From sequence record OR525701.1: 64,000 bases of DNA. One strand, given 5' to 3'. Of the stretch, positions 6,081 through 41,124 are shown in pieces. Position numbers and translations under genes: made by a program. Under the pieces are notes generated by a model that was not told the DNA's origin, did no database searches, and saw only the letters and a program-made list of their open reading frames with translations. How positions within the stretch are numbered: the first letter of the stretch is position 1; every line of letters starts with the position of its first letter. Source of the stretch: Escherichia phage vB-Eco-KMB38.

Positions 6081-6332
6081 TTAGAACTTGATTTCTATCC
6101 AATGACCATCACGCTGGTCGTGATTAATTTTATACTGAAAGCCATTATCACGTAACCACTGACCGACTTGCTCAGTGATAGTTAAATCATTCTTTGACGG
6201 GTAGTACGTGAATTGTGTCTGACCTTTGTCAGCAGCTTTCTCTGCCATCACAGAGAAGTTAGTAATAAAATCACTCAACAAATTAGCTTTAGTGGCCAGA
6301 GCCCTTTCTCTTAATTCCTGTGCAAAACTCAT
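6081..6332 (-). CDS. hypothetical protein 83 aa (24.2-like position)
   Basis: ATG start, stop overlaps next ORF start; synteny between rnlB and hoc. Confidence 0.5.
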   Translation of the reverse strand: MSFAQELRERALATKANLLSDFITNFSVMAEKAADKGQTQFTYYPSKNDLTITEQVGQWLRDNGFQYKINHDQRDGHWIEIKF

Positions 6333-6535
6333 TTCTTCACCTTTTTGTTAATCAAACGTTTACGGTATACAACTTTTTCTTTTGCTTTAAACTTTGACCG
6401 AGCTGTCTCGGCTTTAGTCCATAGTAATCCAACTTCTTTAGGTTGTAAACCGATTTTTTGAGCAATTTCTACGAATGAAAATCCCGCCTCATGTAATGTA
6501 TAAACTTCAACCTCAGTTCTCATAATCAATCTCAT
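6329..6535 (-). CDS. small basic protein 68 aa with helix-turn-helix-like segment (24.3-like position)
   Basis: Motif LHEAGFSFVEIAQKIGLQPKEV resembles an HTH; lysine-rich C-terminus. Confidence 0.5.
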   Translation of the reverse strand: MRLIMRTEVEVYTLHEAGFSFVEIAQKIGLQPKEVGLLWTKAETARSKFKAKEKVVYRKRLINKKVKK

Positions 6536-28023: not shown

Positions 28024-28320
28024 TTACATAAGAAGCAAACGTTCTACCGGAGTACCATCAACCGAAATTACCTTATCAAGGCGGAAAGAACGCCACTGAC
28101 CTAACTCGGTATCGAATGCTCGAACTGATTCACGAGGTTCATAACGAACTTCTGTTGCCGGATTGTTATTTTCATATTTGACTTCAAGTTCATCGCGGGA
28201 GGCAAACATCGTACGAACATCACCGTTAGCCTTTTCAAATACAACACAATGAACGCCTACAGACAGAATAGTTTTAATACGTTCACGAAGAACCATAGTT
28301 TCTTGTTCAGTTAAAATCAT
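28024..28320 (-). CDS. hypothetical protein (31.1-like), 98 aa from ATG 28320
   Basis: Track start 28332 is a GTG; the ATG at 28320 overlaps the cd stop. Confidence 0.55.
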   Translation of the reverse strand: MILTEQETMVLRERIKTILSVGVHCVVFEKANGDVRTMFASRDELEVKYENNNPATEVRYEPRESVRAFDTELGQWRSFRLDKVISVDGTPVERLLLM

Positions 28321-28321
28321 A

Positions 28322-28903
28322 TTATTCACCACAAAAGTTTCGGATTTGTTCCCAATTCAGAGAACGAAGATTATTACGAGAGTACTGAATTACTTCAATA
28401 CCAGCTTGTTTTAGAATGTCGGCCCAATTTTCAGGAGATCTGTCATATAATTCTGCGTATACAACCTTTTTAATACCTGACTGCGTGATAGCTTTAGTGC
28501 AATCAGGGCATGGAGAAAGCGTAGTATATAACGTAGCACCTTCAATAGAATTACCTTTACGAGCTGCAAACAAAATTGCATTCAGTTCCGCATGGATTTC
28601 GTTATTAGCAGACCATGCACTATGAGCGGCCCGATGTTCTTTAGCCAAAACAAAATTATCTGCCCGTCCAAATGCTGTAGTGCCTTCTTTATGTCCAGCA
28701 ACGATGACTGGGATTGGTTTATTCTTCAACCAACCATTTTCAGATGCATGTTCACAACAGTTAACACCGCCTGAAGGAGAGCCATTATATCCAGTAGAGA
28801 TAATGCGTCCATCTTTTTCAATGACGGCACCAACTTTCCATGAACAACATTTTGATTCTTGAGAAATCAAATAAGCAATTTGAAGATATGTGCTAGCTTT
28901 CAT
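28322..28903 (-). CDS. cd: dCMP deaminase
   Basis: 193 aa as T4 Cd; zinc-binding motifs HAE and PCxxC (cytidine/deoxycytidylate deaminase fold). Confidence 0.95.
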   Translation of the reverse strand: MKASTYLQIAYLISQESKCCSWKVGAVIEKDGRIISTGYNGSPSGGVNCCEHASENGWLKNKPIPVIVAGHKEGTTAFGRADNFVLAKEHRAAHSAWSANNEIHAELNAILFAARKGNSIEGATLYTTLSPCPDCTKAITQSGIKKVVYAELYDRSPENWADILKQAGIEVIQYSRNNLRSLNWEQIRNFCGE

Positions 28904-29895
28904 TATTGAACCTTATTAATATAAGTTAACAGCTCTTTAGTTTGTTCCCAACTGATGCACGCATCGGTAATGGAAACGCCATATGACATATTATCAGAAA
29001 TTTTTTGATTTCCTTCATGTAGGAATGATTCTATCATAATTCCTTTGACCAAATCATTAGCTGCTAAATTTTTACCAATACCAATTTGATTACTATAATG
29101 CCCATCAGCGTTTGCATGGCTACAGTCAACCATTACATAATGATTCAGACCTACTGCCCTTGCTTTGTTAGAAGCTTCTTGAATATCAGAAGAATGATAG
29201 TTCGGGCCGTTGGTCCCGCCACGCAATACGATATGCGTATTCTGATTACCTTCAGCTTCAACAATGCCTACAGTACCATCGACGTCCATACCCATATACC
29301 GATGAGGCCAGGAGGCACTATACATCGCGTCTGTAGCTACTTTAATAGAACCATTGGTTGCGTTCTTGAAGCCTACGCACATCGGTAGACCTGAAGCAAT
29401 TTCACGATGTGTCTGACTTTCAGTCGTACGGGCGCCAATAGCAACCCATGAGAAAATACCAGAAAGATACTTAATCGTGAATGGGTCCAATACTTCAGTT
29501 GCTAATGGAAGTCCCATACGTAGAAGTTTACGACACAATGTTCGTGCAACTATAAGACCGTGGTTCATATCAAAACTTCCGTCAAGATATGGATCATTTA
29601 CAAGACCTTTCCAACCTACGGTAGTTCGAGGCTTTTCAAAATAAACGCGCATCACTAACAGAACATTAGGAAGACGAGTTTGAAGTTCAGCCAGACGTTT
29701 GCCGTATTCAACAGCAGCAATAGGGTCATGAATTGAACAAGGACCTACAACAATAAGTTTGCGTGGGTCTTCACCGTTCATAATCGAATTAACTTGTTCG
29801 CGATGAGAAGCCACTTGTGATGCGTAAGCTTCCGACAAAGGAATAATCTCAGCCAGTTCTTTTGGAGAAATAAGTTTTCCGACGATAGGTAACAT
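28903..29895 (-). CDS. 3-deoxy-D-arabino-heptulosonate-7-phosphate (DAHP) synthase, class I (AroF/AroG/AroH-like)
   Basis: 330 aa with LIVVGPCSIHDP, VMRVYFEKPRTTVGWKGL, AIGARTTESQTHRE, VGFKN, MVDCSHAN, SITDACISWE motifs of E. coli DAHP synthases; AAGGA RBS; stop overlaps the cd ATG. Confidence 0.9.
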   Translation of the reverse strand: MLPIVGKLISPKELAEIIPLSEAYASQVASHREQVNSIMNGEDPRKLIVVGPCSIHDPIAAVEYGKRLAELQTRLPNVLLVMRVYFEKPRTTVGWKGLVNDPYLDGSFDMNHGLIVARTLCRKLLRMGLPLATEVLDPFTIKYLSGIFSWVAIGARTTESQTHREIASGLPMCVGFKNATNGSIKVATDAMYSASWPHRYMGMDVDGTVGIVEAEGNQNTHIVLRGGTNGPNYHSSDIQEASNKARAVGLNHYVMVDCSHANADGHYSNQIGIGKNLAANDLVKGIMIESFLHEGNQKISDNMSYGVSITDACISWEQTKELLTYINKVQ

Positions 29896-30015
29896 AACAA
29901 TCCTTAGGAGATATAAACAGATTCTGATTCAACAATACCTTTAACCGGATTAGACAGGCTAAGTTGGTAGTGCTCAGATTTATGACCATTCTCGATAGTA
30001 ATGAGATAGCTCTCA

Positions 30016-30252
30016 TTATAGTGTTCCATATACTCGAGTTGCTTCAACAAGACCATCACTGCCTAATTTAAGATTAGTAATTTGGTCACCATCTTTAGGA
30101 TTAACGATTATGAGAAAAGAACGTGGAGATTCTTGAATAACTCGTAATGTTGCATCCTGGAAACGTTCAGACACTTTATTGATGAGTGCTTGAGCAAATT
30201 CTTTTACTTTAATCTGAAATTCGTGTACTGTAATTGGGGTTTCACTTAGCAT
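30016..30252 (-). CDS. hypothetical protein 78 aa
   Basis: ATG with GAGGAAA RBS and early promoter upstream. Confidence 0.55.
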   Translation of the reverse strand: MLSETPITVHEFQIKVKEFAQALINKVSERFQDATLRVIQESPRSFLIIVNPKDGDQITNLKLGSDGLVEATRVYGTL

Positions 30253-30281: not shown

Positions 30282-30311
30282 ATAGTATCACAACTCCACC
30301 ATGTTGTAAAC
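30282..30311 (-). promoter_or_regulatory. early promoter GTTTAC ... TACTAT
   Basis: rc GTTTACaacatggtggagttgtgaTACTAT then CTCTACCAACAC leader. Confidence 0.55.
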
Positions 30312-30587
30312 TTAAATTGCAAAACATTTAATTTCTTGTGAATCGAAATCAACTTCGCACTGAATTACTAGTTCAGCATCAAGTCCAAACACAACAATCA
30401 CGTGAGCCGAGCTGGGCAACAGTGTAACAGACACAGAATCCACTTGGTCAGGCACCAGCGTATTCAAAACGTAGAGTAGTTCAGAGTGGATCTTAAGCTC
30501 GGTAGCCGTGTCCAGCTTATCAAAGAAATGATTTGCGATAATCTGACTAAAAACGACCTTTACAATTTCAGAATATTTAGGGAACAT
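30312..30587 (-). CDS. hypothetical protein 91 aa
   Basis: ATG with GAGG RBS. Confidence 0.55.
   Translation of the reverse strand: MFPKYSEIVKVVFSQIIANHFFDKLDTATELKIHSELLYVLNTLVPDQVDSVSVTLLPSSAHVIVVFGLDAELVIQCEVDFDSQEIKCFAI

Positions 30588-30990: not shown

Positions 30991-30991
<1 letters not shown>
30800..30991 (-). CDS. possible small ORF 63 aa (GTG start only, overlaps neighbour by 20 nt)
   Basis: No ATG in frame; weak. Confidence 0.25.
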
Positions 30992-32077
<1,086 letters not shown>

Positions 32078-32078
<1 letters not shown>

Positions 32079-32377
32079 TATTTTATTCCTAAGAAAGTTT
32101 CAAGAATACGAATGTTATGCTCGCGGCGGTCTTTATTAATTTCAGCAACGTTTTTATTAATTGACGTACTTCTAACGTTTGAAGAAATAAATTTAATCAT
32201 ATGACTTTTGAGTTGTTGCAAATCCAACCCCTTTTCTTTAGCAGCTTTACGAAGAGCTTTACCTGCTTCATCTAGGGCCTTTGCTGCATCTTTATCATAG
32301 TTGCCAAGTGACATTCCACGGCAGATATCAATATACTCATCAGACCGTTTGATGTAATTCTCTAGTAATGTTTTCAT
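32078..32377 (-). CDS. hypothetical protein 99 aa
   Basis: ATG with GAGGAAA RBS and PeSL-like promoter upstream. Confidence 0.55.
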
Positions 32378-40153: not shown

Positions 40154-40166
40154 TTAGCACCTATAA

Positions 40167-41124
<958 letters not shown>

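Follow-up and report, generated by a model that had tools for sequence, protein, structure and literature searches.

Why should a T4-like phage carry its own copy of the enzyme through which carbon enters the shikimate pathway, and what does the enzyme serve? The question is raised by Escherichia phage vB-Eco-KMB38 (sequence record OR525701.1), from which a stretch of 64,000 nucleotides, referred to here as the window, was analysed. On the minus strand of the window, at positions 28903-29895, lies a coding sequence of 330 amino acids for a class I-alpha DAHP synthase (DAHPS; DAHP is the 7-phosphate of 3-deoxy-D-arabino-heptulosonate), in which clear profile matches and an intact catalytic set are combined with a remodelled inhibitor pocket. 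DAHPS is the control point of carbon entry to the shikimate pathway (PMC9529685). The phage protein appears to be a natural multi-site feedback-resistant member of this family.

Identity of the enzyme and its inhibitor pocket

By its sequence, the protein is securely a class I-alpha DAHPS. The match to Pfam DAHP_synth_1 (PF00793) reaches 251 bits against a cutoff of 25.5 (E = 1e-74), the NCBIfam model TIGR00034 (aroFGH) gives 427 bits against a cutoff of 173, and the PRK12755 profile gives 455 bits against 343. The equivalog models for AroG (364, cutoff 568) and AroH (387, cutoff 463) are both below cutoff. The closest solved structure is that of E. coli AroF, 6agm (E = 1.9e-104). An AlphaFold (AF2) model of the protein has a mean predicted local distance difference test score (pLDDT) of 92, and Foldseek aligns it with the DAHPS structures 4hso, 5cks and 1kfl at a TM-score of 0.95 and a root-mean-square deviation of 1.6-1.8 A. 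The (beta/alpha)8 barrel is kept in the model together with the beta6a/6b insertion, whose strands span residues 198-203 and 209-214. The four metal ligands Cys61, His268, Glu302 and Asp326 (AroG numbering) correspond to C53, H260, E289 and D311 in the window protein and are unchanged in all 15 phage sequences examined. Likewise, the residues for PEP (phosphoenolpyruvate) and those for E4P (erythrose-4-phosphate), namely R92, K97, P98, R99, T100, E143, G163, A164, R165, K186 and R234, are all identical. All 15 of the metal, PEP and E4P residues checked are invariant across the phage clade, and the enzyme is predicted to be catalytically competent, converting PEP and E4P to DAHP. An earlier note on this DNA had named the protein a class I DAHP synthase from a set of AroF/AroG/AroH motifs. 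Every one of these motifs is present in the translation, and the complete catalytic set, together with the structure matches and with profile matches above cutoff, bears the assignment out. The sister family within PF00793, 3-deoxy-D-manno-octulosonate 8-phosphate (KDO8P) synthase, was rejected as an identity, as every NCBIfam match is to a DAHPS model and the KPRT motif for E4P is kept.

The distinctive feature of the phage enzyme lies outside the active site. Every alignment column was screened for residues conserved to at least 90% in 20 non-redundant phage sequences and to at least 90% in 98 cellular sequences, with the two residues being different. Only six columns pass, corresponding to AroG P150I, Q151K, D155G, S180P, F209Y and T223A, and at five of them the position has been named before, as part of the inhibitor pocket or as a site of feedback resistance. 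In the 98 cellular homologues that are closest, Q151 and F209 are found without exception, and S180 and D155 in 96 each. On the phage side the six substituted residues are 95-100% conserved in the 20 sequences, which are 56-77% identical overall and in which 34% of all columns are invariant. The canonical P150, Q151, D155, S180 and F209 are replaced in the window protein by I, K, G, P and Y. By this screen, the inhibitor pocket is the only systematic difference between the phage and the cellular enzyme. The pocket-forming beta6a/6b hairpin is kept.

The N-terminus is altered as well. The phage protein is shorter by 8 residues than AroG and by 9 than AroF, with AroF residues 1-9 missing, and the equivalents of AroG D6/D7 and AroF N8 are absent from the phage proteins. 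Ahead of the catalytic Cys there are 48-52 residues in 30 phage sequences as against 58-95 in the 98 cellular ones. In the feedback-regulated isozymes, D6/D7/I10 are contributed by the N-terminal extension. Its residues are reported, in the paper on the 1KFL structure, to close the inhibitor pocket from the adjacent subunit. The truncation that the earlier note had described is thus real, although it amounts to 8-9 residues and not to the 10-20 suggested there.

Several of these positions are known from regulatory mutants. In AroG, Q151 and S180 touch the bound inhibitor amino acid, D155 forms a stabilising salt bridge, and P150L, S180F and F209A/S are feedback-resistant (PMC9529685). Replacement of AroF Q152 or deletion of Ile11 gives a Tyr-insensitive enzyme (PMC5791370). 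Because the systematic differences between phage and cellular enzymes fall in the inhibitor pocket, we infer, strongly though from sequence, that feedback by aromatic amino acids has been lost. The idea of feedback relief, first drawn from the N-terminus, therefore gains support, and the internal pocket provides stronger evidence for it than the N-terminus does.

Distribution of the gene and its putative link to DNA hypermodification

The window belongs to a Mosigvirus. Over the region, Escherichia phages PTK and AlbertHofmann/Bas47 (Mosigvirus) match it at 100% identity and more than 100 other Mosigvirus genomes at 97-98%. By tblastn, the protein is 100% identical to that of PTK and 97-99% identical to about 139 other records, and a total of 212 phage records carry a DAHPS. 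In most of the 212 the gene is annotated as phospho-2-dehydro-3-deoxyheptonate aldolase, AroF, AroG or DAHP synthase, and the related phages with such an annotation number about 190. The protein matches PHROG 5045 over its full length (E = 9.8e-182), a family that PHROGs assigns to the category 'moron, auxiliary metabolic gene and host takeover'. A DAHPS domain is mentioned in the genome paper of phage phiC120 (PMC8022965), which also names a peptidase_U32 ORF. For the copy in Kanagawavirus KLB31, a role in aromatic amino acid supply has been put forward in a paper on a Klebsiella phage (PMC11845039). Phage DAHPS is hence already known as a gene and an annotation, and is no fresh discovery. 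A literature search found no functional study of any phage DAHPS.

As a separate observation, several records filed as phage hold bacterial-looking DNA, and such records inflate counts of phage auxiliary metabolic genes. They include CAKLQF020000002.1, CAKLQH020000056.1, OR851216.1, AGRM01000002.1 and the MT83xxxx fecal contigs; among such records are 'Acinetobacter phage MD-2021a', which reaches 305 kb and contains yegQ and aroF, fragments of 'Salmonella phage S.Kent' and one contig from Salmonella houtenae.

The proteins gp50 of phage RB69 and bas47_0149 of Bas47 belong to the Peptidase_U32 family (Pfam match of gp50, 42 bits). In RB69, gp50 adjoins gp48, a thymidylate-synthase-like 5-hydroxy-deoxycytidine monophosphate (5hodCMP) synthase, in the cluster for arabinosyl-5-hydroxycytosine (ara-5hoC) (PMC13326640). 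The U32 protein has 389 amino acids and 13 conserved Cys, including a CX4CX3CX2C motif; in the genome to which the window belongs, its gene lies at MZ501047 97272-98441 (Bas47), outside the window. With RB69 gp50 as the probe, tblastn finds U32 in 221 records, and a concatenated query of DAHPS and U32 finds 242 records with 434 matched places. From these query totals, about 192 records carry both genes, out of roughly 195 T4-like records that have DAHPS. DAHPS without U32 is seen in 21 records: 17 of them are below 60% identity and are non-T4-like or contaminant-like, and the remaining 4, which are T4-like, are probably fragmentary records. The reverse, U32 without DAHPS, occurs in about 29 records. 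In T4-like phages, DAHPS is nested within genomes that carry the U32 gene and the ara-5hoC cluster.

In both RB69 (locus L020, 8257-9662) and Bas47 (locus L022, 6037-7442), the U32 gene and a 79-aa open reading frame (ORF; phrog_8601) are flanked by the UDP-arabinose genes on one side and by the 5hodCMP synthase on the other. In Enterobacter phage Entb_45 (Kanagavirus) the order is arabinose-5-phosphate (A5P) isomerase, AfhE-like protein, phosphatase, U32, chorismate mutase and thymidylate-synthase homologue. The chorismate mutase of Entb_45, at 6170-6409 of locus L021, has 79 amino acids (CM_2, E = 2.4e-10) and shares overlapping stops and starts with its neighbours. In 51 phage records this slot, with U32 on one side and the thymidylate-synthase homologue on the other, is taken by the monofunctional chorismate mutase, for which the usual annotation is hypothetical protein. 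The 51 records span phages of Klebsiella, Serratia, Yersinia, Enterobacter, Edwardsiella, Erwinia, Pectobacterium, Providencia, Morganella and Shewanella as well as the E. coli phage EcS1.

The U32 family offers a biochemical reason why prephenate might matter to such a cluster. The 5-hydroxycytidine of 23S rRNA depends on RlhA, an Fe-S protein of the U32 family, which in turn needs prephenate and Fe-S clusters as well as the aro genes and pheA/tyrA; prephenate has been proposed as the hydroxyl donor (PMC5727448). Similarly, TrhP represents a prephenate-dependent route to 5-hydroxyuridine (ho5U) beside the O2-dependent TrhO (PMC12783734). Prephenate is also turned into carboxy-S-adenosylmethionine (carboxy-SAM, Cx-SAM) by CmoA, and another phage uses carboxy-SAM for DNA carboxymethylation.

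A second, independent lineage points in the same direction. Aeromonas phage HJ05, with a genome of 79 kb, is not T4-like, and its DAHPS is at best ~40% identical to cellular enzymes; the active site is intact and all five pocket positions are changed (A/H/P/P/V). A CmoA homologue lies ~3 kb upstream of it (TIGR00740, 7e-35; PDB CmoA, 1e-23). The order at this locus (L009, 287-5546) is CmoA homologue, 325-aa ORF, terminase-like protein, DAHPS and Acb2/Tad1 anti-defence protein, all annotated as hypothetical. In a 261-kb jumbo-phage-like contig from IMG/VR, a DAHPS with the pocket P/N/H/P/Y/S overlaps a thymidylate-kinase gene (L036, 7956-9648), with a topoisomerase-I-like protein, NUDIX, Tad6 and a Dam methylase in its neighbourhood. 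Giant-virus copies occur on 43 IMG/VR contigs of giant-virus metagenome-assembled genomes (GVMAGs; L040-L102), at 38-48% identity to the window protein. The canonical PQDSFT pocket is found in 35 of these 43 and in 19 of 27 other non-T4-like IMG/VR copies, the rest differing at 1-3 positions. At 80 IMG/VR loci, the 8 kb around DAHPS were searched for chorismate mutase, CmoA or U32, and nothing but bacterial aroF-tyrA operons came up, a sign of contamination; several of the contigs that are not from giant viruses are plainly such operons.

Taken as a route, the proposal runs as follows. With its feedback site rewritten, the phage DAHPS would keep running while host AroF, AroG and AroH are inhibited, and would raise host flux to chorismate at the step that controls carbon entry. 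The most likely sink would be prephenate, consumed by the peptidase-U32-family enzyme of the ara-5hoC cluster elsewhere in the phage genome (bas47_0149). In many sister genera, the phage chorismate mutase directly beside U32, an unregulated enzyme in this scheme, would supply the step from chorismate to prephenate. The outcome would be an oxygen-independent route to a 5-hydroxy-pyrimidine. Its value would be greatest in habitats that, like the gut, are poor in oxygen and rich in aromatics, so that the host pathway is closed down. Judging from the 37.9% GC content of the window, a rough estimate of the cytosine demand is about 64,000 for each genome, which makes 6-13 million for a burst of 100-200, and this demand would coincide with the shutdown of the host pathway by aromatic amino acids in the medium. 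We infer that the phage U32 uses prephenate to hydroxylate a cytosine nucleotide and that the metabolic link runs from the shikimate pathway to DNA modification.

Owing to the co-occurrence of DAHPS and U32, the family-level analogy of U32 and one clear independent case, a feedback-blind DAHPS supplying prephenate for DNA hypermodification is the best-supported purpose, and we hold it with moderate confidence. A fuller version is offered more tentatively, as a suggestion that may well prove wrong. In enterobacterial T4-like phages whose cytosine is replaced by arabinosyl-5-hydroxycytosine, it would combine a feedback-blind DAHPS, a monofunctional chorismate mutase and an Fe-S U32 hydroxylase in a distributed three-gene module, which would draw host carbon through the shikimate pathway and in which prephenate would act as oxygen donor for O2-independent 5-hydroxy-dCMP. 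The module would complement the flavin/O2 thymidylate-synthase homologue in the anoxic, aromatic-rich gut, and other phage DAHPS, such as that of HJ05 with its CmoA, would serve other prephenate-consuming DNA modifications.

Several points weigh against prephenate supply as the purpose. The co-occurrence of DAHPS and U32 amounts to about one gain in one clade and is confounded by phylogeny, with HJ05 as the only clearly independent second case, and in HJ05 a terminase gene stands between CmoA and DAHPS. The phage U32 is too distant from TrhP for tblastn (E. coli TrhP, tried as a probe, found no T4-like phage), and those who described the phage U32 speak of a 'sugar or heterocycle reductase'. 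The 5hodCMP synthase of RB69 works with a flavin and obtains its oxygen from O2, and gp48 plus a kinase suffices aerobically (PMC13326640). RB69 makes arabinosyl-5hoC DNA without DAHPS, which is thus not essential aerobically. In RB69 and Mosigvirus the 79-aa ORF in the chorismate-mutase slot has no recognisable chorismate-mutase signal, so that the window phage would have to rely on PheA/TyrA of its host; RB69 ORF049c was rejected as a chorismate mutase, with no Pfam or NCBIfam match and no convincing alignment. Finally, the pocket residues are strictly conserved inside the phage clade and are not drifting, and this could mean a new ligand instead of none.

Two other connections were considered and dropped. 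A need of the 5hodCMP synthase itself for prephenate was rejected, since it is a flavin/O2 enzyme. A link through 'arabino' or UDP-arabinose fails as well, since the sugar comes from ribulose-5-phosphate via A5P isomerase with no role for DAHP. The cluster of Acinetobacter phage DLP3, whose host is strictly aerobic, has no U32 listed, and the U32 query added no Acinetobacter record; both speak for the proposal, being consistent with a link to oxygen.

The strongest rival is a general auxiliary metabolic role, in which a deregulated DAHPS would boost Phe, Tyr and Trp for the burst of phage proteins after host transcription is shut off. It agrees with the control of carbon entry by DAHPS (PMC9529685), with the intact active site and altered feedback pocket, with the PHROGs category and with the proposal made for Kanagawavirus KLB31 (PMC11845039). 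It leaves unexplained, however, why the gene among T4-like phages is restricted to those with U32 and 5hoC, while Tequatrovirus and Dhakavirus, on the same hosts, are without it. Moreover, the phage chorismate mutase is embedded in a DNA-modification operon and not among translation-related genes, and RB69 and phages of the mar005P1 type can dispense with DAHPS. On these grounds the general role is possible but rather unlikely. The aromatic amino acid or folate purpose favoured by the earlier note meets the same difficulty, as the gene is limited to phages that have the 5-hydroxycytosine/U32 cluster, and a chorismate mutase is present as well in many of these.

Less probable still is a re-tuned allosteric site, in which the conserved I/K/G/P/Y/A pocket would bind another effector (a nucleotide, prephenate or chorismate) and place flux under the control of phage metabolism. 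The 95-100% conservation of the six residues, in sequences that otherwise diverge as described above, and the retained beta6a/6b hairpin would fit such a site. The HJ05-type (A/H/P/P/V) and L036-type (P/N/H/P/Y) enzymes, however, change the same positions differently, which looks more like repeated destruction of the site than like convergence on a new one, and the phage enzyme lacks the N-terminal residues with which the adjacent subunit reportedly closes the pocket. Very improbable, lastly, is a supply of chorismate for folate through p-aminobenzoate (pABA), serving frd, td and the dCMP-modifying enzymes, or the use of DAHPS as a PEP/E4P sink that shifts carbon toward pentoses: frd, td and nrdAB do lie 7-12 kb away inside the window in a nucleotide-metabolism neighbourhood, but the co-occurring chorismate mutase diverts chorismate from pABA/folate and Trp toward prephenate, the thymidylate-synthase homologue of these phages uses flavin and not folate (PMC13326640), and T4 has the same folate enzymes without DAHPS.

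Local layout and descent

All the features described in this section lie on the minus strand. The DAHPS ORF begins at the first possible start codon downstream of the preceding stop, with a Shine-Dalgarno sequence AAGGA (29901-29905) 5 nt ahead of its ATG. The downstream neighbour is the dCMP deaminase gene cd (28322-28903; Pfam dCMP_cyt_deam_1, E = 3e-26, and annotation). The DAHPS stop TAA (28905-28903) and the cd start ATG (28903-28901) share base 28903 in a TAATG overlap (28901-28905), exactly as previously described. The translational coupling read into this overlap does not stand: it is ordinary T4 gene packing, seen alike in the T4 cd.1/cd overlap, and in Winklervirus and Bragavirus one or two ORFs lie between DAHPS and cd. 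A functional coupling to cd via TAATG was rejected accordingly, as the packing is generic and is not conserved across genera.

Upstream of DAHPS lies a conserved 41-aa ORF (29904-30029; phrog_15876, E = 1.9e-32), which overlaps the end of cd.2 and, with its stop codon, also the ribosome-binding site of DAHPS. This ORF is preceded by a cd.2 homologue (DUF7320; 30016-30252), the first gene of the likely transcription unit. An early-promoter-like site matching the consensus (TTTACA, 17 nt with TG, TACTAT; 30282-30310) sits between the cd.3 and cd.2 homologues, at the position that in T4 corresponds to the early promoter Pe133295, and DAHPS is probably transcribed early from this promoter upstream of cd.2. 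The cd.3 homologue (DUF7355; 30312-30587) is highly variable among Mosigvirus genomes, and the polynucleotide kinase/phosphatase gene pseT (30991-31890; profile match and annotation) forms the upstream limit of the variable interval. The gene order is thus pseT, the cd.4/cd.3/cd.2 homologues, the 41-aa ORF, DAHPS and cd. A scan of the window for RNA features found no tRNA and no Rfam family.

Some neighbouring genes deserve separate mention. The gene 31.1 homologue (28024-28332, minus strand) has a WYL_2/Sm-like SH3 domain (E = 8.5e-10) and is called 'tail fibers protein' in several public records, which looks like a propagated misannotation. Two short ORFs, one beside pseT (32078-32377, minus strand) and one between td and frd (40166-40513, minus strand), are putative homing endonucleases in the Bas47 annotation and may be what is left of mobile endonuclease genes.

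That the gene is an acquired accessory one, placed between cd and pseT, had been suspected, and this is upheld. T4 has cd.1 in the slot, and some Mosigvirus genomes are without DAHPS. The synteny pseT, cd.x, DAHPS, zero to two small ORFs, cd, 31.x, 31 and rIII is kept in five genera (Mosigvirus, Kanagawavirus, Winklervirus, Marfavirus and Bragavirus) and also in one metagenomic T4-like contig. RB69, ECO111 5-P and mar005P1-type Mosigvirus have neither DAHPS nor the 41-aa ORF, and cd.2 abuts cd. The two genes are gained or lost jointly as one cassette, and DAHPS is still accessory inside Mosigvirus.

The 30 phage-clade sequences (319-343 aa) form a T4-like clade that is monophyletic in 200 of 200 neighbour-joining (NJ) bootstraps and adjoins an AroF-like gammaproteobacterial group. 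This affinity in the NJ tree is the sole signal as to the donor, with no cellular homologue above 54% identity. Between genera, DAHPS divergence keeps pace with that of cd, pseT and gene 31. The ratio of nonsynonymous to synonymous substitution (dN/dS) is 0.16 for Entb_45 against PEi26, a single unsaturated pair, and the GC content of DAHPS equals that of its neighbours. Monophyly, tracking divergence, dN/dS and GC content together point to one old acquisition followed by vertical descent and purifying selection. Among five Mosigvirus genomes, variable sites make up 31% of cd.3, 9% of cd (with a hotspot) and 2% of the cd.2-ORF41-DAHPS block, the last being close to locus-wide identity. There is mosaic allele exchange around a uniform cd.2-ORF41-DAHPS cassette. 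An apparently low synonymous divergence of DAHPS relative to cd in Mosigvirus proved to be ordinary mosaicism in a sliding-window comparison.

Significance and comparison with known systems

On its own, DAHPS is an ordinary, catalogued phage auxiliary metabolic gene. Through the way it is distributed, however, the shikimate pathway becomes linked with the hypermodification of phage DNA, and the U32 and chorismate-mutase genes are given a testable role. If the proposed role is true, it would explain DNA modification without oxygen in these phages. Furthermore, host aromatic-pathway status and oxygen level would then influence how well the DNA of Mosigvirus-type therapeutic phages is protected from restriction and CRISPR. 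Natural multi-site feedback-resistant DAHP synthases would also be useful templates for aromatic-compound bioproduction.

Compared with the E. coli enzymes, the phage DAHPS is ~55% identical to AroF over its whole length. It has in common with AroF, AroG and AroH the (beta/alpha)8 fold, the metal ligands and the PEP/E4P residues including KPRT, and shares with AroF a Gly at the position of AroG S211. Its C-terminus is about 10-26 residues shorter, and there are two small loop deletions. The Mosigvirus, Kanagawavirus, Winklervirus, Marfavirus and Bragavirus proteins known as PHROG 5045 or as GenBank aldolase are the same family with no difference at the sequence level; their public records give a name only, without analysis of regulation or pathway context.

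Compared with engineered or selected feedback-resistant alleles (AroG P150L, S180F, F209A/S and D146N; AroF Q152I, P148L and the Ile11 deletion), the phage substitutions hit the same positions at AroG 150, 151 (K; AroF 152), 180 and 209, and the N-terminus is also truncated. The resistance positions AroG D146 and AroF P148 are unchanged. Unlike the alleles, the phage enzyme has several changes together, and these are fixed and conserved over a deep clade.

Prephenate serves the C5 chemistry of pyrimidines in several systems, namely RlhA (ho5C2501), TrhP (ho5U34), CmoA (Cx-SAM) and the CmoA/CmoX of phage S-B43. The phage genomes with DAHPS have a U32-family gene beside the 5hoC synthase, and its likeness to RlhA and TrhP is a family-level analogy. 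The demonstrated phage 5hodCMP synthase differs from the prephenate-dependent systems in being a flavin/O2 enzyme. Unlike the phage case, moreover, no known prephenate-dependent modification system includes its own DAHPS.

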